Positions 134 to 23,400 of a DNA stretch of 64,000 nucleotides are shown piece after piece (the stretch's first letter is position 1; the number at the start of each line of letters is the position of its first letter). The notes under the pieces were generated by a model that ran no database searches, was not told the origin of the DNA, and saw only the letters and a program-made list of their open reading frames with translations. Made by a program: the position numbers and the translations under genes. Source of the stretch: a virus; the IMG/VR virus record IMGVR_UViG_3300027541_000218, positions 1 through 64,000 of that record; one strand, 5' to 3'.

Positions 134-160
134 TTTCCTGAGCATGAAATAAAACTGCTC
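134..160 (+). repeat. H-type pseudoknot repeat, copy 1
   Basis: TTTC-CTGAGCA-T-GAAA-TAAAAC-TGCTC; P1 TTTC/GAAA, P2 GAGCA/TGCTC. Confidence 0.85.
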
Positions 161-192
161 ACCAAACCACCACAAACAGAAAGGTAAAACAA

Positions 193-360
193 ATGACATT
201 AGGCGGATACACTTATCAAGTAGGAGATTTATTCACTACTTCTAAGACAGGCGTTACAGGCAGAATTGAAAAGTTTATTCCTGTTCGTCAAAATGTAACT
301 CGTGTTATGTTGCGCTTGGCAAATAATCAAACAAGATTTGCTATGGTAAAAACATACTAA
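193..360 (+). CDS. small hypothetical protein (55 aa)
   Basis: AGAAAGG RBS at 178-184; MTLGGYTYQVGDLFTTSKTGVTGRIEK...; absent from the ORF track (<60 aa). Confidence 0.75.
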   Translation: MTLGGYTYQVGDLFTTSKTGVTGRIEKFIPVRQNVTRVMLRLANNQTRFAMVKTY

Positions 361-367
361 CAGAATT

Positions 368-441
368 GCTCTCTGTGTTCACGGCAGACTGCGATCTAAA
401 ACTAGATTAGATTGAACTTTCTGCGAAAGTCCCTTGAGAGC
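368..441 (+). ncRNA. candidate multi-branch structured RNA before pseudoknot copy 2
   Basis: GCTCTC/GAGAGC closing stem enclosing the hairpins GATCTA/TAGATT and ACTTTC/GAAAGT. Confidence 0.35.
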
Positions 442-444
442 CTT

Positions 445-471
445 CATCCTGAGCATGATGTAAAACTGCTC
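445..471 (+). repeat. H-type pseudoknot repeat, copy 2
   Basis: CATC-CTGAGCA-T-GATG-TAAAAC-TGCTC. Confidence 0.85.
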
Positions 472-488
472 TAAAACCCCCCGACCCG

Positions 489-504
489 TGTGACTAAGAT
501 CACA
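489..504. promoter_or_regulatory. CRP/GlxR-type operator
   Basis: TGTGA-CTAAGA-TCACA, perfect TGTGA-N6-TCACA. Confidence 0.7.
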
Positions 505-536
505 TCTCATTATGTGAGATTAATTAAGAAATAGAT

Positions 537-565
537 TTGTATTTCCCACATTTTTTTGCTATGCT
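537..565 (+). promoter_or_regulatory. sigma70/SigA-type promoter
   Basis: TTGTAT-17 bp-TATGCT with extended -10 TG. Confidence 0.6.
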
Positions 566-595
566 TAGTTATACCAACAAGAAAGGAAAGCCCTA

Positions 596-859
596 ATGAT
601 ATCAACCGCATTAGCAATACAAGAAGCAACAATGGAAGCCGTTCATGACGAGGAAACTATGAATATGGCTGCCCATATTTTTCATTCACGAAATGAAGTT
701 TCAGAGGATGAATTTATCAGAATGATGTTTATGTATTCTGCTCATCTATCAGCGATTACTGCTACTCTAGTTACTCATGCCTGCTTGACTGAAAGCCAAC
801 TAAATGATATGCTAGAAACAATAAAAGAAATGGAAACAATGGGAAAGGACATTGAATAA
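596..859 (+). CDS. hypothetical protein
   Basis: 87-aa ORF with AGAAAGG RBS at 580-586. Confidence 0.8.
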   Translation: MISTALAIQEATMEAVHDEETMNMAAHIFHSRNEVSEDEFIRMMFMYSAHLSAITATLVTHACLTESQLNDMLETIKEMETMGKDIE

Positions 860-1314
860 TGGAAGAGACAACAATAGAGGTCCCCTCACACTATAACGCT
901 AATCAATTAGTAACCTATAAGGTTATCAAGGATGGCGTAGCCTCATTCCCAACTACTAAGGTTAATGACCTTGAGTGGGAACTAGAGCAATACCGTCGCA
1001 CTCAGGACAGAGTTAATGAACTCCAGTCTACAATCAATAAAATTATCGATAACATGTCTGAAGAGTATTGGTTTAATCCTAATACAGAAAAAGAAACAAT
1101 ACTCGAAGACCTTTGCGAGATTTTAAAATTCAACCCAGTTAAAACTGTAGAATTCTCTGCAGTAATTAATGTTAATGGTGCAATCGAAATTCCTCTAAAC
1201 GAAGCAGAAGACTTTGATTTAGAATCATTCTTGTCAGATACAATTAGCGTTGATTCTTACGGCGGTAATGTTGATATTCATGATTGGAATATTGATAATG
1301 CATATGAAAACTAG
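859..1314 (+). CDS. hypothetical acidic protein
   Basis: 151-aa ORF, TAATG coupling, GGAAAGG RBS. Confidence 0.8.
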   Translation: MEETTIEVPSHYNANQLVTYKVIKDGVASFPTTKVNDLEWELEQYRRTQDRVNELQSTINKIIDNMSEEYWFNPNTEKETILEDLCEILKFNPVKTVEFSAVINVNGAIEIPLNEAEDFDLESFLSDTISVDSYGGNVDIHDWNIDNAYEN

Positions 1315-1338
1315 TTTCTGATAGGGGGCTATCCGAAA

Positions 1339-1368
1339 AGGACCTGAGTACGTCCTAATAAACTGCTC
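1339..1368 (+). repeat. H-type pseudoknot repeat, copy 3
   Basis: AGGAC-CTGAGTA-C-GTCCT-AATAAAC-TGCTC (U-G wobble in P2). Confidence 0.85.
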
Positions 1369-1406
1369 AATTTTTATTTGAGATCCCCCGCAAATGGGTC
1401 GGGGGG

Positions 1407-1438
1407 CGTGATATAAATCACATGTGAGATTAAGCACA
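1407..1438. promoter_or_regulatory. tandem CRP/GlxR-type operators
   Basis: CGTGA-TATAAA-TCACA directly followed by TGTGA-GATTAA-GCACA. Confidence 0.65.
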
Positions 1439-1470
1439 TGTCCGATTTTTCCCATTTTAATTAAGATGAT

Positions 1471-1499
1471 TTGACTTTATTTCCCCGTAATGCTAAACT
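1471..1499 (+). promoter_or_regulatory. SigA-type promoter
   Basis: TTGACT-17 bp-TAAACT with extended -10 TG. Confidence 0.65.
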
Positions 1500-1528
1500 A
1501 GATTGTAATCTATTGAAAGGAAAAAAAT

Positions 1529-2551
1529 ATGGCTCATGAATTAGAAACCCAAAATGGTGTTGCTAGTTTCGCTTCTTTCCGTGAACCTGCTTGGCATGGT
1601 CTAGGCACAGTATTCACAGAAGAAAAAAATACAGCAGAAATGTTGGCTGCTGCTAATCTAAATAACTGGAATGTTCGTCTTGAAGATGTAAATATTCCTA
1701 CTCACTTATCATCAGATAAGAACTACCAATATGTAGTGCGTACCAATCCTACAGATAACACTCAGACAGATATTCTTGGTGTTGTAGGTGAGCGTTATCA
1801 TGTTCTACAGAATGAAGATTTATTTTCATTTGGTGACAATATCCTAGATGGTGGTGGTCGTTGGGAAACTGCTGGCGCTATTCGTGGTGGTCGTGTAGTA
1901 TTTGGCTCTCTTGCTCTTGAGCGTGAGACAGTGCTAGACCCTAATGGTGTTGCAGATAAGGTAAAGACTTATCTTCTTATCAACACATCACACGATGGCT
2001 CTATTGCTATTCAAGCGTCAATCACTCCCGTTCGTGTTGTGTGCGCTAACACTCTCAACCTTGCTCTTGGTGGCGTAGGTCGTAAGCGTAATAAAGGTAT
2101 CAAGCAATCTTTCAAGATTCGCCATACTCAGACAGCACAAGGTAAAGTCGCTATTGCTCGTGAGGCTCTTGGTCTTGCCAATACCTACATGGATGAATTC
2201 GACAAGATGGCACACGCAATGATTCAGAAAGAAATCACAGCCGTTGATTTTAATAAAATCATTCTTGCTGCTTATCCAAAGCCTGAGAAAGATACTAAGG
2301 GCGCAATCAAGAAGTGGGAAAATAAAGTTGATACAATCAACGATATTTACACTGGCGAATTCAATGGCATGATTGCTAACACTGCTTGGGGTGCGTTCAA
2401 TGCTCTAACTGAGCGCCTTGACTGGTATCGTTCTGCTCGTGGTGGCAATAACGAGAGTATTCTCGCTGCTGCTAGTGGATTTGACCCATCTATCACAGCA
2501 GAAAAAAATCGTTTGCTAACTATTGTTCGCAACACATTAGAATTAGTGTAA
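1529..2551 (+). CDS. DUF932 / TIGR03299-type phage-plasmid protein
   Basis: MAHELE...REPAWHGLG, YHVLQNEDLF, ETAGAIRGG, NTSHDGS, TPVRVVCANTL, IRHT, TAWGAFNALTE motifs. Confidence 0.85.
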   Translation: MAHELETQNGVASFASFREPAWHGLGTVFTEEKNTAEMLAAANLNNWNVRLEDVNIPTHLSSDKNYQYVVRTNPTDNTQTDILGVVGERYHVLQNEDLFSFGDNILDGGGRWETAGAIRGGRVVFGSLALERETVLDPNGVADKVKTYLLINTSHDGSIAIQASITPVRVVCANTLNLALGGVGRKRNKGIKQSFKIRHTQTAQGKVAIAREALGLANTYMDEFDKMAHAMIQKEITAVDFNKIILAAYPKPEKDTKGAIKKWENKVDTINDIYTGEFNGMIANTAWGAFNALTERLDWYRSARGGNNESILAAASGFDPSITAEKNRLLTIVRNTLELV

Positions 2552-2560
2552 ACTAATTCA

Positions 2561-2587
2561 ACACCTGAGCAAGTGTAAAAACTGCTC
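2561..2587 (+). repeat. H-type pseudoknot repeat, copy 4
   Basis: ACAC-CTGAGCA-A-GTGT-AAAAAC-TGCTC; preceded by hairpin GAATTAGT-GTAA-ACTAATTC, followed by a T-tract. Confidence 0.85.
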
Positions 2588-2716
2588 ACTATTTTTTTTG
2601 CAGATCATAAATTGAAATTGTAATCTTAATATGTGAGACGGGTCGGGGGTGTCCGTTTTGTACCTTTTATTAAGAATGATAGTATTATTTTTTAAAATTT
2701 TTTTATTAAGAGGGAC

Positions 2717-2745
2717 TTGATTTTTTCCCGAAATTTTGGTATTCT
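2717..2745 (+). promoter_or_regulatory. SigA-type promoter
   Basis: TTGATT-17 bp-TATTCT with extended -10 TG. Confidence 0.55.
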
Positions 2746-2772
2746 ATATTTACACCAAGAAAGGAAATAAAA

Positions 2773-2994
2773 ATGAAAGTTGAATTATATGAAATGGAAT
2801 ATTCTGTTTCTCCAGGAGGCAAGGATTGCTGGGAAGCAACAGTATATACAGGCTTAGGACATTCTTCTAACTATAGTGAATATAGATCTGCTGGAGAGGC
2901 TTTAGACCATTTGATTTCTGTATACCCTGGCGTAGAACTAGAAGTTGACGTAACTACCCTTGAAGCGTATAATTTACAACAGGAAAGGGTATAA
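2773..2994 (+). CDS. hypothetical protein
   Basis: 73 aa, AGAAAGG RBS at 2758-2764. Confidence 0.75.
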   Translation: MKVELYEMEYSVSPGGKDCWEATVYTGLGHSSNYSEYRSAGEALDHLISVYPGVELEVDVTTLEAYNLQQERV

Positions 2995-2996
2995 AA

Positions 2997-3134
2997 ATGT
3001 TAGTAGACGACTTAATTATTAAAGTATATGAGGATAATTATTCCCATATGGACTTTATGGAAAATATGAATGGTGGAGACTGTGATTGTGCTTTACATTC
3101 TTTCTTTAAAGTAATAGAGGTTTATACATGCTAG
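2997..3134 (+). CDS. small hypothetical protein (45 aa)
   Basis: GGAAAGGG RBS; MLVDDLIIKVYEDNYSHMDF...CDCALH; hand-translated. Confidence 0.55.
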   Translation: MLVDDLIIKVYEDNYSHMDFMENMNGGDCDCALHSFFKVIEVYTC

Positions 3135-3277
3135 GTTATGAAAAATCAGATTTAGACATGATGATTGCTAATGTAAACATTGCTTCTAAGCAATTAGGCA
3201 ATTCAGGTATTGCTAGGGGACTAGATGAAGTATCTTTATTTCTTCAAGGTCTATGGGCAGAGGGGTACTTTGACTAA
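3128..3277 (+). CDS. small hypothetical protein (49 aa)
   Basis: MLGYEKSDLDMM...FLQGLWAEGYFD*; overlaps neighbours in operon fashion. Confidence 0.55.
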   Translation: MLGYEKSDLDMMIANVNIASKQLGNSGIARGLDEVSLFLQGLWAEGYFD

Positions 3278-3402
3278 TGGATAAAGTTTTATACTGGTCA
3301 GATCTAGCAGAGTTAACTCATCAAACACAAGTAGATTTATTTGACTTCTGTGCTTGTGAAGAGCAAGAGTTATTTCCATATGAGGATTGTCCAAGGGTGT
3401 GA
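3277..3402 (+). CDS. small Cys-containing hypothetical protein (41 aa)
   Basis: TAATG coupling; MDKVLYWSDLAELTHQTQVDLFDFCACEEQ... Confidence 0.5.
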   Translation: MDKVLYWSDLAELTHQTQVDLFDFCACEEQELFPYEDCPRV

Positions 3403-3413
3403 CGAAAGTCACA
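3398..3413. promoter_or_regulatory. CRP/GlxR-type operator upstream of a TTGACT -35 (3424)
   Basis: TGTGA-CGAAAG-TCACA, perfect consensus. Confidence 0.7.
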
Positions 3414-3561
3414 TTACGAGGGCTTGACTTATACCCCTGATTTTGGGAAAATAAGACTATGGACATTTACTTAGAGGAACTCACCAAAACTGTAGCCTAT
3501 CACGATTCGTATTGTGATTGCCGTGATTGCGCTATGTATTATTTTCTAACAGAAAGGGAAA

Positions 3562-3750
3562 ATGAAAATGCCAATGTATGACCTAAAGGTAGTAGTAGAG
3601 TATTTCTATGAAGTAGAAGCAGAGACTGAGGAACAAGCAGAGGAACTTGGTTGGCACTATGAAGACCACGCTTACTCAGGCGAAGTTTATTCTATTGAGG
3701 TATGGGAAAAAGAAGAAGAGGAAGTAGAACTAGATGAGGAGGTTAAGTAA
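3562..3750 (+). CDS. hypothetical acidic protein
   Basis: 62 aa; AGAAAGGGA RBS at 3551-3559. Confidence 0.7.
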   Translation: MKMPMYDLKVVVEYFYEVEAETEEQAEELGWHYEDHAYSGEVYSIEVWEKEEEEVELDEEVK

Positions 3751-4481
3751 TGCCTAACTGGTGCTATAACTATCTTGACATATCAGGTGATGAAGCCTTG
3801 GTTGCAGATGTAAAACGACAACTCAACAAACCATTTGTCATGAGCCATGATTCATGGAATATGAATACAAAACAAATGGAAATATCAGAAACAAGTTATT
3901 CAAACCCTGTCTTTGCATTTCATAATATATATAATCATAGACAAGACGGTATCTCAGATGAGGATTACATAAAGCAACCTGACCATACCCTGCCTTTAGA
4001 AGAATCTCTTATGTTCAAGGGCAACCATTGGTACGACTGGAATGTTCGCAACTGGGGAACCAAATGGGATGTTGCAGTTCGTGACGGTGATGAGTATCCT
4101 GAGACTGAGTTATATGAAGAGACTGATAGTTCTGTGGGGTATAAGTTTAATACTGCTTGGTCTCCACCTGTTGAGGCTATAACTAAACTATCAGAACAGT
4201 ATCCTAGCCTAGAGATGAATCTATCTTATGAGGAAGAAACTGGTTGGGGTGGTTCTGTCAACTTCAATAACGGTATTGCTACTGAAGAAGAATCATATGA
4301 AAACAAATGTAGAGATTGTGATTCACTAAATAGTTTAGAATACTGTGAAAATGATTGTGGTGAGATTTGTTCAGAGTGTAATTATATGGGGGAAGCAGAC
4401 CTTGACTGTGTTGCGGAATGTGATACCCACAAGGTATACTTGGACAATGTGCCAGAATACAGAAAGGTAAGCAATGATTGA
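3750..4481 (+). CDS. YubB/DUF1281-like ferredoxin-fold protein with Cys-rich tail
   Basis: MPNWCYN start, WYDWNVRNWGTKWD, FNTAWSPP, YEEETGWGG motifs. Confidence 0.7.
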   Translation: MPNWCYNYLDISGDEALVADVKRQLNKPFVMSHDSWNMNTKQMEISETSYSNPVFAFHNIYNHRQDGISDEDYIKQPDHTLPLEESLMFKGNHWYDWNVRNWGTKWDVAVRDGDEYPETELYEETDSSVGYKFNTAWSPPVEAITKLSEQYPSLEMNLSYEEETGWGGSVNFNNGIATEEESYENKCRDCDSLNSLEYCENDCGEICSECNYMGEADLDCVAECDTHKVYLDNVPEYRKVSND

Positions 4482-4671
4482 CAAGTTAGTAGAATATATC
4501 AAGTTACATGCTCTTAGCATGGAGCAAGATATTGAAAACATTCATACTAAATATGAAGCAGGTGGTATGTATTCAAATGAGGATACGTACATGGAAGAGT
4601 ATTTGGCAGGTGCCATTGCTGCCTGCTATCATATTCTATCTACAATTGACGAGTTCAGAAAGGAACAGTAG
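4474..4671 (+). CDS. hypothetical protein
   Basis: 65 aa, AGAAAGG RBS at 4461. Confidence 0.7.
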   Translation: MIDKLVEYIKLHALSMEQDIENIHTKYEAGGMYSNEDTYMEEYLAGAIAACYHILSTIDEFRKEQ

Positions 4672-4946
4672 TGGAAATATCACCAACAACATTAGAACCA
4701 TACCTGCAAAAACAGGTAGACCATGATATCAGCGGTATCGATATCATGCACGGTCACCTAAAAGTTCTCATGCTGCAGGCAGAGCAAGAACTAATTAATG
4801 CACAGGCTTTGGAGGATGAAACTGAAGAGGCTATGGATTCTATGGAACGTAAATATTGGGAGGGTATGTGTGACGCATATGCTCATCTATATAGTTTGAC
4901 ATATGATTTATCATTCGCAATAGCAGCAAGAAAGGAAGAAGAATAA
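4671..4946 (+). CDS. hypothetical protein
   Basis: 91 aa, GTG start, AGAAAGG RBS at 4657. Confidence 0.7.
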   Translation: MEISPTTLEPYLQKQVDHDISGIDIMHGHLKVLMLQAEQELINAQALEDETEEAMDSMERKYWEGMCDAYAHLYSLTYDLSFAIAARKEEE

Positions 4947-5296
4947 TGGGAGCACGTTGTACATTTGTATTTAAAACTAGTGAGGACCATGCCGTGGCAC
5001 TATACAGCCACTGGGGTGAGGACTCGTTGTATCCAGACCTGGCAGCGGCATTGAATCATGCAAGACCTAGGTGGACGGACCCTTCATATGGTACCCGTAT
5101 GGCAATTAGTTATTTAATTCAGGATAACATCATGGACGAGACTGGCTTTGGTATCTATGGGTGTGACCCTACGGACCAGGCATTCATGGACACACCAATC
5201 ACAATTGATTTTACAGATAATACTGTAGGCAATGGTGAAGACTGGCATTCATTTGATGAGTTTGTTAATTATCATGGAATGGCTATCTCAAAATAA
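4946..5296 (+). CDS. hypothetical phage protein (YxHW motif)
   Basis: 116 aa, AGAAAGG RBS at 4929; MGARC...LYSHWG. Confidence 0.75.
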   Translation: MGARCTFVFKTSEDHAVALYSHWGEDSLYPDLAAALNHARPRWTDPSYGTRMAISYLIQDNIMDETGFGIYGCDPTDQAFMDTPITIDFTDNTVGNGEDWHSFDEFVNYHGMAISK

Positions 5297-5890: not shown

Positions 5891-6650
5891 GGTTGACAGC
5901 CTGCAGCAGATGTGCTATGCTGTGGGCTGCGCCCCGACCCTATCTTTCAAATTCCAAACACTTTATTACGAAGATAGTATTTTTTTCCCAGAATTTTTAT
6001 TACGATCAAACATAAAAAATCCCAGCATTTTATCAAACAAATTTTTATTTGTCAAATCAGGGTTATATCCCTTATACTGTATATAGGTATGTTTGTCAAG
6101 GATCTTTTATATACCGCCGCCGAATGGCGGCAGCCCCGAAGGGGCGTGAGATTTCCCAAAAAAACATTAAGAACCCTTTTCAAAAAATCCCTGAAAGTTT
6201 GGCGGGGTACAAAAAGATATACCCAAATCCCTCTATATAAAACATTACGAAAACACTTTATTTTTCCCTGATTTTCAAACATTTTAAAACATTTTTATAT
6301 GGTTTTATAACATTTTGTTATGGTTTTTAAACATTTTTAAACCACATTTTGTCTATAATTTGGGACAAATCATTTGACAAATATGGTTTGATATGGTATT
6401 ATGCAGGCTATTTGGCTATTTGACATATAAGGTTTTATATGATATGGGGTTTGGGAACTGGGTTGGTTTGAACTGTCGCATTACGATCCATCTTCTAAAG
6501 ATGTTCCATTCCCCACTTTCCTCCCTTTTCCTCCACCTATAGTATATGAAAATATAATCAGTAATATATTTTTGTGGATAAACCTGTGGATAACTATGAG
6601 ATTTTGTGGAAAACGGGGTATACAAATCAGGACATTTAGGCTATACTTGT
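5891..6650. other. long AT-rich non-coding region (candidate origin or control region)
   Basis: No credible ORF; ATTACGA and TCAAACA repeats, twin GC hairpins at 6116-6145, DnaA boxes at 6573-6613. Confidence 0.5.
6573..6613 (-). promoter_or_regulatory. three co-oriented DnaA boxes
   Basis: TGTGGATAA (6573), TGTGGATAA (6585), TGTGGAAAA (6605), i.e. TTWTCCACA on the - strand. Confidence 0.6.
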
Positions 6651-6653
6651 CAT

Positions 6654-7019
6654 ATGCAATTCATTCCTGAGCATCAAACCAATAACCTAATCTTGAGGTT
6701 TATAGCCAATCAGATATTTCACCGTATATCCCATATGTTCTTATCTAGGTCATTAAGGATATATTATATATATGAGAATGAGTATGATGAGGATAACTCC
6801 TTTGTACCGCCGAAGTTTGACCATCTTAGAATTAGAACCTATAACTGGCTATACAATGTTTTAGATAAGCCATATAGTAGATGGGGAACACATTACGATA
6901 TATCTTTTGATGATGAAGACCAAGAATTAATGGATAGGCTTGGCTCTGATTATGACGAGAATGGTATCCCATATTGGGAGAAGACAGGAACAGTGGATCC
7001 AGATTATGATTTACGATAA
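6654..7019 (+). CDS. hypothetical protein (probably leaderless)
   Basis: TATACT 6 nt before ATG 6654, in frame with the 137-aa track ORF. Confidence 0.6.
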   Translation: MQFIPEHQTNNLILRFIANQIFHRISHMFLSRSLRIYYIYENEYDEDNSFVPPKFDHLRIRTYNWLYNVLDKPYSRWGTHYDISFDDEDQELMDRLGSDYDENGIPYWEKTGTVDPDYDLR

Positions 7020-7068
7020 AATATCTACATGCCTTGAATGGCTAAGTATAAATGACATTGAATGGGAT

Positions 7069-7098
7069 TTGACATACTAGCCAACACTTTGCTATAAT
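7069..7098 (+). promoter_or_regulatory. consensus SigA promoter for the sRNA
   Basis: TTGACA-18 bp-TATAAT with extended -10 TG; no ORF directly downstream. Confidence 0.75.
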
Positions 7099-7103
7099 TA
7101 TAT

Positions 7104-7238
7104 CTAGAAGGCATGAACGGCTGATGGTTTACCGTGTGGTCGTACCTCTTCTAGCATCCGCTCCCTTTCTGGCGGATAAGTCGCCTCTCCCTTTCTGGAG
7201 GCGCACTCCTGAGCATGAGTCTAAACTGCTCCCTTTCT
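7104..7238 (+). ncRNA. candidate anti-Shine-Dalgarno sRNA with three CCCUUUCU motifs and a 3' pseudoknot
   Basis: 5' stem CTAGAAG/CTTCTAG; hairpins ATCCGCT-CCCTTTCT-GGCGGAT and CGCCTCT-CCCTTTCT-GGAGGCG; pseudoknot 7205-7231; third CCCTTTCT at 7231-7238. Confidence 0.75.
7205..7231 (+). repeat. H-type pseudoknot repeat, copy 5
   Basis: ACTC-CTGAGCA-T-GAGT-CTAAAC-TGCTC. Confidence 0.85.
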
Positions 7239-7251
7239 GTATAATATAGAT

Positions 7252-7344
7252 ATGAGTCTATACAGAGAAAAGAATGAGTTTATTCCCATTATGAGGGATA
7301 CAGATGATCATATAGATGATTATGAAGCAATAGGCATTGATTGA
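7252..7344 (+). CDS. 30-aa leaderless micro-ORF
   Basis: TATAAT (7240-7245) 6 nt before the ATG; MSLYREKNEFIPIMRDTDDHIDDYEAIGID*. Confidence 0.4.
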   Translation: MSLYREKNEFIPIMRDTDDHIDDYEAIGID

Positions 7345-7350
7345 TATACC

Positions 7351-7388
7351 CCAACCATATTGCCCTGCAAAGGGGCAAATGTTGGTTG
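7351..7388. terminator. hairpin between convergent genes
   Basis: CAACC...TTGCCC-TGCAAAG-GGGCAA...GGTTG. Confidence 0.4.
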
Positions 7389-7395
7389 TGGGGTT

Positions 7396-8040
7396 CTATT
7401 TTGCGCCGAACTTTAAACGCCGCTTTTCCCATATTTCTAGATCTTGCGGATGATCAAAGTCTTCAGTCCAGTCGTTGATTTCAACATAGTTTGATTTATT
7501 TGTAAAGTGATGCTGTACCCGTAGGCTTTCAAGGTTCCTTATCTTTTTATACAACAGGTATGTTCCAGGACCTTTTTTGTTTTCTTCTATTACCTGCTGT
7601 AGGACATTACGAACGAACTCTTTTTGTCCCCCGTCAAAACTCAATGCAAATATTTCTTTATATTTTTTGCCAGTAATTTTTGATGCTTTGGGGCGTAGAA
7701 AAAACTGTATTGGATCTATATTATTTGCTATTGTCTCTACCGCTTGATCAGAAAACCAAACATCACCAAATGCAATAATTGTTCTATCTTCCCCCCACAG
7801 ATGGACTGATGAGTACAGTTTGGCTGCATCATTCCAGTTGCCTTCAAGAGGATATTCAGTGGCAGCATTTATACTTATATTGTTTTTAGATATTACGACT
7901 ATATCATTGCTAAACTTATTAAACTGATTAATGGTTCTGTTTAGCAGTGGTTCGCCATCTATTATTGCAAGATGTTTTGGGGTATTACGAAAGTTATTCC
8001 AACGTGTACCTTTTCCTGCTGCTGGAATGATTACTCTCAT
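7396..8040 (-). CDS. NTP-transferase (sugar/choline-phosphate nucleotidyltransferase family)
   Basis: IIPAAGKGTRW...PKHL, FGDVWF, EDFDHPQD motifs. Confidence 0.8.
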   Translation of the reverse strand: MRVIIPAAGKGTRWNNFRNTPKHLAIIDGEPLLNRTINQFNKFSNDIVVISKNNISINAATEYPLEGNWNDAAKLYSSVHLWGEDRTIIAFGDVWFSDQAVETIANNIDPIQFFLRPKASKITGKKYKEIFALSFDGGQKEFVRNVLQQVIEENKKGPGTYLLYKKIRNLESLRVQHHFTNKSNYVEINDWTEDFDHPQDLEIWEKRRLKFGAK

Positions 8041-9100: not shown

Positions 9101-9344
9101 TTGGACAGAGGAACTCTCAGACGAGCAGAAGAAGCAAGTCTGGGAGTTCATTGTTTTTACAGTAAAAGAAATACGAGAGCAGATTGCTCTTGATATTGAG
9201 TATACTTATGAAGTATGGGCTACACACGGCAAAACAAAAAGTCGTAGAACTAAAAAGGCTTTTGAAGTTTGTGCAGATATAGCCAGAGGATTAAACGAAA
9301 GGATGCCAGATGAAACTAACAGAGGCAGCACAGGAGAAGGTTAG
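9066..9344 (+). CDS. hypothetical protein
   Basis: ORF bridging ssb and the IscA-like gene; probable start at MPNWTEE. Confidence 0.6.
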   Translation: MEKIHGSRLMPNWTEELSDEQKKQVWEFIVFTVKEIREQIALDIEYTYEVWATHGKTKSRRTKKAFEVCADIARGLNERMPDETNRGSTGEG

Positions 9345-9657: not shown

Positions 9658-9939
9658 ATGACAACAAACAGAATAGTTGCTCTTAGCACAACTTCACCTT
9701 TATTGCTAAGTCCTGCAGGAACACACTCTGGAGTTGATATCACAGTGCAAAATATCAACGCTACAGGATATGTTTATCTTGGCGGATCAAATTTAACTAA
9801 CGCAAATTATGGTTTTAGAATTGATCCTAGCCATGCAATTTCAATTGAATTAAATGGAAGAGATGCTTTGTATGCCCTTGGTTCTACCAGTGGATTATCT
9901 GCTTCTATTCTTATGACTAATCTAGAACAAGGAATGTAA
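9658..9939 (+). CDS. hypothetical beta-rich protein (possible virion accessory)
   Basis: 93 aa, leaderless signature; coupled to the collagen-like gene. Confidence 0.65.
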   Translation: MTTNRIVALSTTSPLLLSPAGTHSGVDITVQNINATGYVYLGGSNLTNANYGFRIDPSHAISIELNGRDALYALGSTSGLSASILMTNLEQGM

Positions 9940-10508
9940 TGGCACGTTTTTATAATCCACCAGATGTTGGCGTACCTGGTCCACAAGGTCCACAAGGTCC
10001 TACTGGTCCGCAAGGTCCACAAGGAGATCCTGGTCCTGCTGGAGGATTTGGATATTCAGCATCATATTGGAGCACTGTAGATCAAACTGGAACAAGTGGA
10101 TCTATTCAAGCACATACATTAAATAATATTGATTGGGAAGATGGAATTCAGTTAGTAGATAATTCTAAAATTACCTTTTTATATGCTGGTAAATACAATA
10201 TTGCATTTTCTGATCAGTGGCACCACACTGGCGGTGGAGGATCTGGTAGCACAGTAAATATTTGGCTTGCAAAAAACGGTACAGCAATAGAGGATACAAA
10301 TACAAAAGTAATTGTTAACACTAATAATCCTTATTATGTTGCAGCATGGAACTTTTTTGTTAATGCTAGTACAAATGATTATTATCAAATAATGTGGTCT
10401 GCTGATACTACAACTATAAAATTAGAAGCAGAGCCTGGAACTGGCAGTGGTGCAAATCGCCATCCGTCAATTCCTTCTGTTATTGTAACTGTTAACCAAG
10501 TAGGTTAA
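9939..10508 (+). CDS. collagen-like repeat protein with C1q/BclA-like C-terminal domain
   Basis: (GPQ)n Gly-X-Y run; AGKYNIAFS, IWLAKNG motifs. Confidence 0.75.
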   Translation: MARFYNPPDVGVPGPQGPQGPTGPQGPQGDPGPAGGFGYSASYWSTVDQTGTSGSIQAHTLNNIDWEDGIQLVDNSKITFLYAGKYNIAFSDQWHHTGGGGSGSTVNIWLAKNGTAIEDTNTKVIVNTNNPYYVAAWNFFVNASTNDYYQIMWSADTTTIKLEAEPGTGSGANRHPSIPSVIVTVNQVG

Positions 10509-10544
10509 TTTGACAAAACCTAGGGGTAGGTATATAATAGAAGT

Positions 10545-22727: not shown

Positions 22728-22885
22728 GATTCTAATATACCATTACTGCTTGGATTTGTCAATAGGAAATGTAGTTGTACATACAATGCATACTTTATAA
22801 CTTAATCCTGTAAAAGGGCAAGATCCAGCATCTGCTAAATTATGACCCTTTATTTTACATTTAAAATAATTTATAAAATGTTTAA

Positions 22886-23155: not shown

Positions 23156-23400
23156 TCTTTTTTAGTCTTATGATTATTAAATTCTTTAGAGATTTCTCCG
23201 CCCTCTAAATATATTCCACCCCAAATTCCCCACTCTTTGCCAGATACGCCTACTGCAAAACATTTATTAGCAACTGGACATGTTCTACAAAGAGAGTCTA
23301 CAAATTCTCTTGTTTCAGTTTGTTCTTCGTAAATATCAAAGAATACATTAGTATCGGATCCTAGACAAAGAGCATCGTCTTTCCACAGATGCTGTTTCAT
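23116..23400 (-). CDS. whiB: WhiB-family transcription factor
   Basis: ALC...FF...CRTCPV...C...GIWGG. Confidence 0.9.
   Translation of the reverse strand: MKQHLWKDDALCLGSDTNVFFDIYEEQTETREFVDSLCRTCPVANKCFAVGVSGKEWGIWGGIYLEGGEISKEFNNHKTKKDWSYTWQALTMEQ

Follow-up and report, generated by a model that had tools for sequence, protein, structure and literature searches.

Phage RNAs displaying copies of the 16S rRNA 3'-terminal heptamer: a conserved family of candidate ribosome-binding-site-masking regulators

What is transcribed from a full-consensus promoter that has no gene behind it? This question is raised by positions 7069 to 7238 of the stretch of viral DNA analyzed here (64,000 nucleotides [nt], referred to below as the window), which represents the first 64 kb of the 73.8-kb IMG/VR record IMGVR_UViG_3300027541_000218 (CheckV completeness of ∼71%, G+C content of ∼36%). 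A preliminary description of this DNA had proposed that the locus encodes a small RNA (sRNA) that mimics the tail of the 16S ribosomal RNA (rRNA) and, by pairing with ribosome-binding sites (RBSs), acts as an early-to-late translational switch or a host shut-off RNA. The sequence comparisons described below support the existence of a discrete, conserved, noncoding transcription unit, whose sequence-constrained parts are loops carried on covarying stems. The explanation that we prefer, with slightly less than even confidence, is that this unit specifies a trans-acting, base-pairing accessory sRNA that would occlude AGAAAGG-type RBSs in a manner similar to that of the LhrC and 6C RNAs.

The promoter of this unit is the best promoter-like site between 6 and 9 kb, and transcription is predicted to start at positions ∼7104 to 7106, which would yield an RNA of about 135 nt (predicted lengths in its relatives are 74 to 142 nt). 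All the elements that had been noted at this locus, namely, the promoter itself, a 5' stem (P1), two hairpins (2 and 3) with the same loop, a pseudoknot, and a third copy of the loop sequence, are present where they had been placed (Table 1). Hairpins 2 and 3 have only the loop and the two closing base pairs in common; their stems differ and covary, and both loops are predicted to be unpaired in the folding ensemble (p of ≥0.96). In the third copy, which forms the 3' tail, 7 of the 8 bases have an unpaired probability of 0.66 to 0.88, and the first C closes stem S2 of the pseudoknot. The string CCCTTTCTGG is found only at the two loops in the 73.8-kb record (the reversed control gave 0). The statement that no gene follows the promoter also stands, with the correction that an open reading frame (ORF) of 41 amino acids (positions 7124 to 7249) overlaps the RNA. 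This ORF was rejected as a coding sequence, as the open frames are out of phase among the members of the family and the ORF is gone where the 5' stem is short.

P1 varies in both length and sequence, and its pairing is kept in members L008 and L009 despite a different stem sequence. In the window, it forms a duplex resembling that between a Shine-Dalgarno (SD) sequence and an anti-SD sequence (UAGAAGG with CCUUCUA), the 5' strand being SD-like and the 3' strand anti-SD-like; in L004 and L014, the 3' strand carries a fourth copy of CCUUUCU, which is masked by pairing. As the P1 sequence is unrelated in L008, L009, L011, and L016, this SD mimicry is not essential. The tails of the relatives read CCCUUUCU, CACUUUCU, CCUCCUUUCU, UUUUUUU, or AUCUUUUU, and the tail could represent a seed, a U-rich transcript end, or both. 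The pseudoknot with its U/C-rich tail differs from a canonical terminator, judging from the terminator scan and the T-tract count. In L009 (positions ∼4900 to 4990, minus strand), a long hairpin of ∼70 nt is inserted after the pseudoknot in place of the U/C-rich tail, so at least one phage can dispense with the third seed.

When 2.9 million viral contigs were scanned for exact copies of the two 12-mers at a spacing of 6 to 30 nt, the double motif was recovered in 15 contigs, versus ∼0.01 expected, all of them with the same order of parts and a near-consensus promoter in front. Since this first set had been chosen on the loop sequence, further searches followed other routes. A scan with one loop fixed detected variants with a single hairpin (L176/L178/L180 and L179), in which hairpin 3 is absent, as well as L177, in which the second loop is longer by one C. 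A covariance model applied to loci fetched via a neighboring protein detected L166, a one-hairpin variant with the loop ACCUUUCU; the same model (R1), applied to loci fetched via a different gene, detected L183/L214 (loops UUCCUUUCU and AACCUUUCU) and L255 (loops CUCCCUUUCU and AACCUUUCU, tail CCUCCUUUCU). The CCUUUCU motif is kept at the remaining sites of L166, L177, and L179, for which one loop was fixed in the search, and in both loops of L183/L214 and L255, for which no exact loop pattern was imposed. Lower-scoring model matches at other loci (15 to 39 bits), which consist of the pseudoknot alone with unrelated sequence upstream, were rejected as members. The family comprises ∼20 distinct members in IMG/VR. 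Their loops read CCCUUUCU, UCCUUUCU, or ACCUUUCU, with the invariant core CCUUUCU followed by the GG that opens the stem and preceded by C, U, or A. A promoter that matches the consensus at 9 to 12 of the 12 positions is found in the same place in 20 of the 20 distinct members, and no reading frame is conserved across them. The flanking genes, both upstream and downstream, differ between members, which argues that the RNA is not a leader.

In the alignment of 14 distinct sequences, 96.6% of the cells pair, compared to 40 to 49% when the partners are slid, and 11 of the 23 pairs have changed on both sides; none of 500 shuffles reached the observed values. Hairpins 2 and 3 are each paired in 100% of the cells, with both-side changes at 4 and 5 of their 7 pairs, respectively. 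The U-G closing pairs are invariant, and a G-U pair in hairpin 3 is present in 10 of the 14 sequences. On the other strand, these pairs would become C-A mismatches, which indicates that the RNA is read from the plus strand. The anatomy of the RNA, its conservation, its covariation, and its strand can all be read directly from these sequences. A protein sponge of the CsrB/RsmZ type was rejected because the loops have no G on the transcribed strand and the opposite strand is excluded by the same wobble pairs.

The only families detected in the whole window at the gathering scores of Rfam 15 were five transfer RNAs (tRNAs). At E of ≤10, the region from 7040 to 7420 had only chance-level matches, which comprised models of microRNAs and long noncoding RNAs and, on the minus strand, RsaH (17.6 bits compared to the gathering score of 50; E of 2.2); a known family with another function was therefore not matched in Rfam. 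Neither blastn with positions 6900 to 7500 nor tblastn with one structural protein produced a match among the INPHARED phages, and a literature search on the motif strings returned only unrelated eukaryotic matches. When the genomes of 185,579 bacterial and archaeal species were searched for exact copies of the double motif, only four unrelated tandem repeats were returned; a divergent copy would escape such a scan. The neighboring genes had no toxin or defense match in Pfam and PADLOC. A type III (ToxI-like) antitoxin or pseudo-antitoxin was rejected, as the stems differ and covary and no PADLOC or Pfam toxin is found among the neighbors.

The last 27 nt of the sRNA (exact core at positions 7206 to 7231) are a typical copy of a widespread mini-pseudoknot that is not in Rfam. 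Its pattern consists of a variable and covarying stem S1, CC-U-GAGCA-UG, an A-rich loop 3, and UGCUC (sequence CCUGAGCAUGA ... AAACUGCUC), with S2 (GAGCA/UGCUC) being near-invariant. At least 119 viral contigs (L023 to L141) carry the core. Among 139 distinct copies, pairing at the three variable positions of S1 is seen in 100, 99, and 88% of the cases, versus 41 to 43% after shuffling, and the outer two pairs use all four Watson-Crick combinations. The pseudoknot sits after stop codons or protein genes, before RBSs (often by 15 to 30 nt), and before tRNA genes, often 5 to 13 nt before the first tRNA of an array. The base that follows it is A in 108 of the 139 copies, and a T-rich tract follows in only 20, so the pseudoknot is not a classical terminator. 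Because the sRNA is found in 1 of the 42 pseudoknot-bearing records (and in 0 of the 13 with a completeness of 90% or more), the pseudoknot is a generic element that does not depend on the anti-SD hairpins; only in the sRNA family is it fused to such hairpins and usually then followed by another CCUUUCU. It is a generic phage gene-end module borrowed by the sRNA, which it probably serves as a nuclease-resistant end.

The meaning of the loop sequence depends on the host. A WhiB-family gene (positions 23212 to 23385, minus strand; 46.8 bits, above the Pfam cutoff) suggests an actinobacterial host and is the chief marker of one in this genome of 36% G+C. The DnaE protein of the record is nearest to those of Streptomyces phages (∼54% identity), and DNA of the record is present in riverine metagenomes. 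Combined with the WhiB gene, these data point to a phage of low-GC freshwater Actinobacteria. The loop core CCUUUCU is identical to the final 7 nt of 16S rRNA of the actinobacterial type, and 41 of the 61 Actinomycetota genomes sampled contained the 16S 3' 20-mer that ends in CCTCCTTTCT, with 0 control matches (this sample and the one used below for perfect sites include unpublished genomes and are reported as aggregate counts only). The characterization of the RNA as a mimic of the 16S tail holds for these 7 nt but not beyond them: the CCUCC core is not covered, and the preceding base varies among C, U, and A.

With the RBS criterion of GAAAGG located 6 to 10 nt before an ATG or GTG start codon, the window has 11 such sites, all on the plus strand, from position 179 to position 9297, and 10 of them are within 0.2 to 5 kb. 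These sites precede 11 of the ∼27 left-arm genes and 0 of the ∼88 other called genes (Fisher p of 2e-8), which have AAGGAG, AGGAGG, or G-runs or are leaderless (examples of the latter start at 10533, at 7252, and, on the minus strand, at 22739, 27830, and 29779). The ten start codons that had been cited from the 1- to 5-kb block, and the one behind 9297, all have the motif at this distance, and the assignment of AAGGAG/AGGAGG or leaderless starts to the downstream genes is likewise borne out. The sRNA-bearing relatives have an orthologous block of 10 to 15 genes with GAAAGG-type RBSs, and the RNA is always encoded on the same strand, 2 to 12 kb downstream of that block.

The 11 phage RBSs are predicted to form 7 to 10 contiguous pairs with the sRNA seed. 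Predicted duplexes of GAAAGG RBSs have energies of −8.2 to −16.2 kcal/mol with the loop and −8.1 to −10.3 kcal/mol with the 16S tail, whereas those of AAGGAG/AGGAGG RBSs have −4.4 to −5.5 kcal/mol with the loop and −8 to −11 kcal/mol with 16S rRNA. At the best site, CAGAAAGGGA, the values are −16.2 kcal/mol with the loop and −9.4 kcal/mol with the 16S tail. The complementarity is evident from the sequences themselves, and the selectivity for the GAAAGG class over the GGAG types is real at the level of predicted pairing.

Table 1. Coordinates of the sRNA locus, its predicted structural elements, and associated features of the window
Feature	Positions	Strand	Details
Promoter	7069-7098	+	−35 TTGACA at 7069-7074, 18-nt spacer, TG, −10 TATAAT at 7093-7098; 12 of 12 hexamer matches
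P1, 5' stem CTAGAAG/CTTCTAG	7105-7111 with 7147-7153	+	Present in the minimum free energy and centroid folds; variable insert hairpin inside
Hairpin 2	Stem 7156-7162/7171-7177, loop 7163-7170	+	7 bp; 8-nt loop CCCUUUCU, predicted unpaired (p≥0.98)
Hairpin 3	Stem 7182-7188/7197-7203, loop 7189-7196	+	7 bp; 8-nt loop CCCUUUCU
H-type pseudoknot	7205-7231	+	S1 7205-7208/7217-7220; S2 GAGCA 7211-7215/UGCUC 7227-7231; third loop A-rich
Third copy of CCCUUUCU (CCCTTTCT), 3' tail	7231-7238	+	Single-stranded
Leaderless ORF of 30 amino acids	7252-7344	+	−10 box TATAAT at 7240-7245, 6 nt before start; acidic motif (F/I)PIxRDxDDHIDD
Long GC-rich hairpin	7349-7402		T-runs on both sides; from fold; terminator scan match at 7360-7378
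Pseudoknot copies in window	134-160, 445-471, 7205-7231		Core also at 135 and 446
Ten candidate target RBSs, (A/G/T)GAAAGG	178-4936	+	Starts at 193, 596, 859, 1529, 2773, 2997, 3568, 4474, 4671, 4946
Eleventh GAAAGG RBS	9296-9303	+	Before gene of 109 amino acids at 9310
Best candidate site CAGAAAGGGA	3549-3560	+	Before ORF of 60 to 62 amino acids; 10 contiguous predicted pairs with loop and closing bases

In the proposed mechanism, two or three copies of CCUUUCU, displayed in the unpaired hairpin loops and the 3' tail, would pair in trans with purine-rich AGAAAGG(G/A) SD sequences, thereby occluding the 30S subunit and lowering translation and probably the stability of the messenger RNA (mRNA). 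The phage targets would be 11 genes at 0.2 to 9.3 kb, including the whole left-arm block, while GGAG-type RBSs and leaderless genes would escape masking. Host mRNAs with the same SD type would be hit as well, and the main targets could be either the left-arm genes of the phage or host mRNAs. What we infer here is that the RNA is expressed and that it pairs with and represses its targets in vivo, as well as which these targets are and when it acts. Pairing in trans is favored because constrained pyrimidine loops, stems that are free to vary, redundancy, and a strong promoter of its own make up the anatomy of an SD-masking sRNA.

Regulators of this kind, SD-targeting sRNAs with C/U-rich loops, are already well known. 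The LhrC RNA has three redundant CU-rich (UCCC) sites, located in a loop, in a single strand, and in the terminator, which bind G-rich SD regions and block target translation, with Hfq not being needed (PMC4132741). Similarly to LhrC1-5 of Listeria monocytogenes, the RNA described here, a putative stand-alone sRNA, has its own promoter (20 of 20 members) and at least two redundant CU-rich unpaired seeds (p of ≥0.96 for the loops and 0.66 to 0.88 for the tail), which are complementary, by predicted pairing, to the SD regions of 11 phage RBSs; most members also have U-CCC at the loop entry. In contrast to LhrC, it comes from an actinobacterial phage and not from a firmicute chromosome, is predicted to end in a pseudoknot with a U/C-rich tail in place of a plain terminator hairpin, and has a longer seed, CCUUUCU, which equals the 16S 3' end; there is no sequence or covariance-model similarity between the two, and the function of the phage RNA is a predicted one. 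The loops of 6C RNAs (RF01066) are runs of six or more C, whereas those seen here have 3 to 4 C and then UUUCU, and no 6C match was found at E of ≤10. The two are alike in the host phylum and in having two hairpins with pyrimidine-rich loops; as for a chromosomal gene such as 6C, the exact scan of 185,579 genomes, which divergent copies escape, gave only the four unrelated tandem repeats mentioned above. The C-rich loops of 6C bind mRNAs without a chaperone in Actinobacteria (PMC6486639). A UCCC motif is described as conserved across the Staphylococcus Rsa RNAs (PMC2790875); RsaE/RoxS and other C-rich sRNAs of Firmicutes resemble the phage RNA in having unpaired C-rich motifs that target the SD sequence but are not homologous to it. 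In phage T4, the endoribonuclease RegB cleaves the GGAG of SD sequences, inactivating early mRNAs (PMC1702504, PMC3014915). RegB and the repressor RegA are phage encoded, as is the candidate described here, and act on the RBSs of many early phage mRNAs, so that early shut-off via the RBS would follow the same logic; they are proteins, whereas the present candidate would be a pairing RNA and is missing from most close relatives. Judging from sequence, what is new here is a phage-borne, nonhomologous family with a 16S 3' heptamer as its seed, its fusion to a pseudoknot, and the sharp partition of RBSs in the genome, on account of which the sRNA would be class selective.

Several observations weigh against the sRNA being an RBS-masking regulator of the left-arm genes, and the first of them is its distribution. 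Among the 59 syntenic loci, defined as those having an orthologue of the gene at positions 4946 to 5296 and either the sRNA or at least 4 kb of downstream flank, the sRNA is found in 5. It is found in none of the 18 whole records of close relatives, including one that is 95% complete and one that is 100% complete, and in just one of the 42 pseudoknot-bearing records. The sRNA is an accessory gene of a minority of relatives, and its patchy presence fits poorly with a core early-to-late switch and better with an optional modulator. In the closest relatives by the gene at 4946 to 5296 (L184 to L192, in which this gene has 78 to 83% nucleotide identity), similarity to the window stops altogether right downstream of the gene, from 5297 onward, so that a mosaic breakpoint lies where the left-arm block ends.

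The RBS partition itself is also found where the sRNA is absent: G351 still has 22 block-limited GAAAGG sites in 76 to 88.5 kb, and G352 has 14 in 94.8 to 103 kb, a pattern that matches the one in the sRNA-bearing G345 and G346. The partition is thus a trait of the lineage and not a product of the sRNA, and the idea that late genes avoid GAAAGG due to the sRNA was rejected. Compared to generic pseudoknot loci, the RBSs of sRNA-bearing loci are enriched in a G after GAAAGG (17 of 58 versus 24 of 249, p of 3e-4) and in CA before it (23 of 58 versus 31 of 249, p of 1e-5). However, this apparent extra complementarity to the sRNA is gone in the comparison with lineage-matched loci (G, 6 of 28 versus 12 of 83, p of 0.39; CA, 8 of 28 versus 27 of 83), and sRNA-specific complementarity was accordingly rejected.

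The predicted pairing raises its own doubts. Most left-arm RBSs read GAAAGGA, for which the predicted pairing with the 16S tail equals or slightly exceeds that with the loop (−10.3 versus −9.7 kcal/mol), so that the sRNA may or may not win over ribosomes. Any CU-rich loop seems to be complementary to SD sequences, so complementarity by itself is weak evidence. The perfect 9-nt site AGAAAGGGA occurs at RBS distance 0 to 5 times per strand in nearly all of the 301 sampled Actinomycetota genomes, with maxima of 9 and 8, only a little more often than the reversed pattern used as a control. Given the rarity of such perfect sites, the global host shut-off that had been suggested is unlikely to operate by strong pairing. 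The consensus promoter suggests that the sRNA would be made together with its supposed early targets and not later. What stands of the early-to-late switch is the complementarity of the loops to AGAAAGG RBSs and their poor match to AAGGAG/AGGAGG; the accessory nature of the sRNA and the existence of the RBS partition without it tell against the switch itself.

In metatranscriptomes, 68 to 87% of the words of positions 6600 to 7600 are present in six riverine RNA runs, and RNA contigs from four runs cover 6.67 to 7.5 kb at a word depth of ∼0.5 to 7, which is below that at 5 to 6 kb and at 8.7 to 9.4 kb. As contigs from RNA libraries cannot reveal the ends, strand, or level of an RNA, these low-depth contigs from four libraries cannot show a discrete RNA, and no conclusion on expression is drawn from them. 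Small RNAs are usually lost from libraries of the metatranscriptome type. Contigs of two or three riverine RNA libraries stop at the same points, one at 7118, inside the variable insert of the 5' stem, and the other at 7268 to 7273, just past the start of the small ORF; these shared breaks could reflect population microdiversity or real RNA ends, between which contigs cannot discriminate.

The small ORF that follows the sRNA (positions 7252 to 7344) encodes an acidic peptide with no match in Pfam. Similar acidic peptides of 28 to 30 amino acids are encoded in L008, L009, L010, L011, L016, L018, and L179. In a comparison of 256 loci, 29 of them sRNA bearing (as defined by a regular expression) and 227 without the sRNA, the peptide was found in 8 of the former and 0 of the latter, and its gene is always located 100 to 260 nt downstream of the sRNA on the same strand. 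The peptide could work together with the RNA or could be encoded by a cassette gene that travels along with it. The long hairpin at 7349 to 7402, which separates the sRNA/peptide unit from the convergent NTP-transferase-like gene (positions 7396 to 8040, minus strand), is likely, from its predicted fold, a bidirectional terminator.

An intriguing, if rather unlikely, extension of the RBS-masking model is an RNA-only switch between translation classes. By masking every SD sequence that depends on pairing with the extreme 3' tail of 16S rRNA (the AGAAAGG type, found in the left-arm genes of the phage and in some of the host mRNAs), the sRNA would free ribosomes for the GGAG-type and leaderless phage mRNAs; it would be an optional module with a linked acidic mini-protein and a base-pairing counterpart of T4 RegB/RegA.

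Among the explanations that involve no masking of RBSs, the one that survives best, although we consider it improbable, is that the loops imitate the 16S 3' end and bind a protein instead of mRNA, acting as a decoy or sponge whose titrating effect would protect ribosomes or bias initiation. Candidate partners are a host endoribonuclease or toxin attacking the anti-SD tail, in line with some mycobacterial MazF toxins that cut the 16S anti-SD sequence, and a translation factor that binds pyrimidines, ribosomal protein S1 being an example. This explanation makes sense of the identity of the conserved core with the last 7 nt of 16S rRNA and of the tails of L016 and L255, which carry the full 16S decamer CCUCCUUUCU; identical loops in multiple copies on different stems are typical of protein sponges, and the patchy accessory distribution resembles that of counterdefense genes. 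However, a partner protein is not identifiable, the neighbors having no Pfam or PADLOC toxin or defense match, and the CCUCC core that defines the anti-SD sequence is absent from the loops. In addition, the variable base (C, U, or A) in front of the heptamer fits a 7-nt pairing seed better than a 5'-extended protein site.

The close association with the peptide gene brings up a cis-acting alternative that appears quite improbable, namely, that a longer transcript, extending from the promoter at 7069 to the terminator at ∼7400, begins with this RNA, which would work as an insulator, stabilizer, or attenuator for the leaderless ORFs, with no target in trans. The peptide gene is seen only beside the sRNA (8 loci versus 0 of the 227 without it), the only strong terminator-like hairpin comes after that gene, and the pseudoknot elsewhere seldom has a T-tract after it (20 of 139). 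On the other hand, the pattern used detected no such peptide in 21 sRNA-bearing loci, and several loci run straight into a promoter and a gene that are unrelated. In every case, a −10 box of its own lies 6 nt before the ATG of the peptide gene, which is therefore leaderless, a mode of initiation that a long 5' extension would defeat. A role in cis would also leave the invariant loop sequences on covarying stems unexplained.

Patchy distribution and the presence of mosaic breakpoints right beside the sRNA might equally mark a functionless or selfish by-product, a mobile promoter-hairpin-pseudoknot unit that spreads among mosaic phages with no regulatory target. We view this as very unlikely, as the loops have remained invariant while the stems, the 5' stem, and the flanks diverged, and the motif is kept in two independent architectures, with one and with two hairpins, which indicates selection on the loops. 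Finally, the three copies of CTCCCTTTCTG within 76 bp, adjoining two promoters, could be taken for sites of a DNA-binding protein, with the 11- to 12-mers acting as DNA repeats and the hairpins being incidental, but this is hardly credible, given that the stems covary with pairing kept and that the U-G and G-U pairs, which would turn into C-A mismatches if the opposite strand were read, indicate a plus-strand RNA.

A polymorphism of natural populations was seen elsewhere in the window. In the gene at positions 9939 to 10508, which codes for collagen-like repeats of the tail fiber type, contigs of two RNA libraries have a 27-nt in-frame insertion behind position 9975. It amounts to one extra Gly-X-Y-type repeat block, i.e., a repeat-length polymorphism.

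Very little is known about regulatory RNAs in lytic phages, and to our knowledge none has been reported from phages of the low-GC Actinobacteria that abound in fresh water. The family described here offers a sharply defined hypothesis, that of a multivalent copy of the 16S 3' heptamer that discriminates between classes of RBSs. If RBS masking by this sRNA proves false, the family still contributes a structured RNA that is new and well supported, joined to an uncatalogued phage pseudoknot of very wide distribution. If it proves true, the SD subtype (tail pairing, core pairing, or leaderless) would be usable as a regulatory code, and the sRNA would offer a compact, naturally occurring means of repressing translation in Actinobacteria in a class-specific manner.

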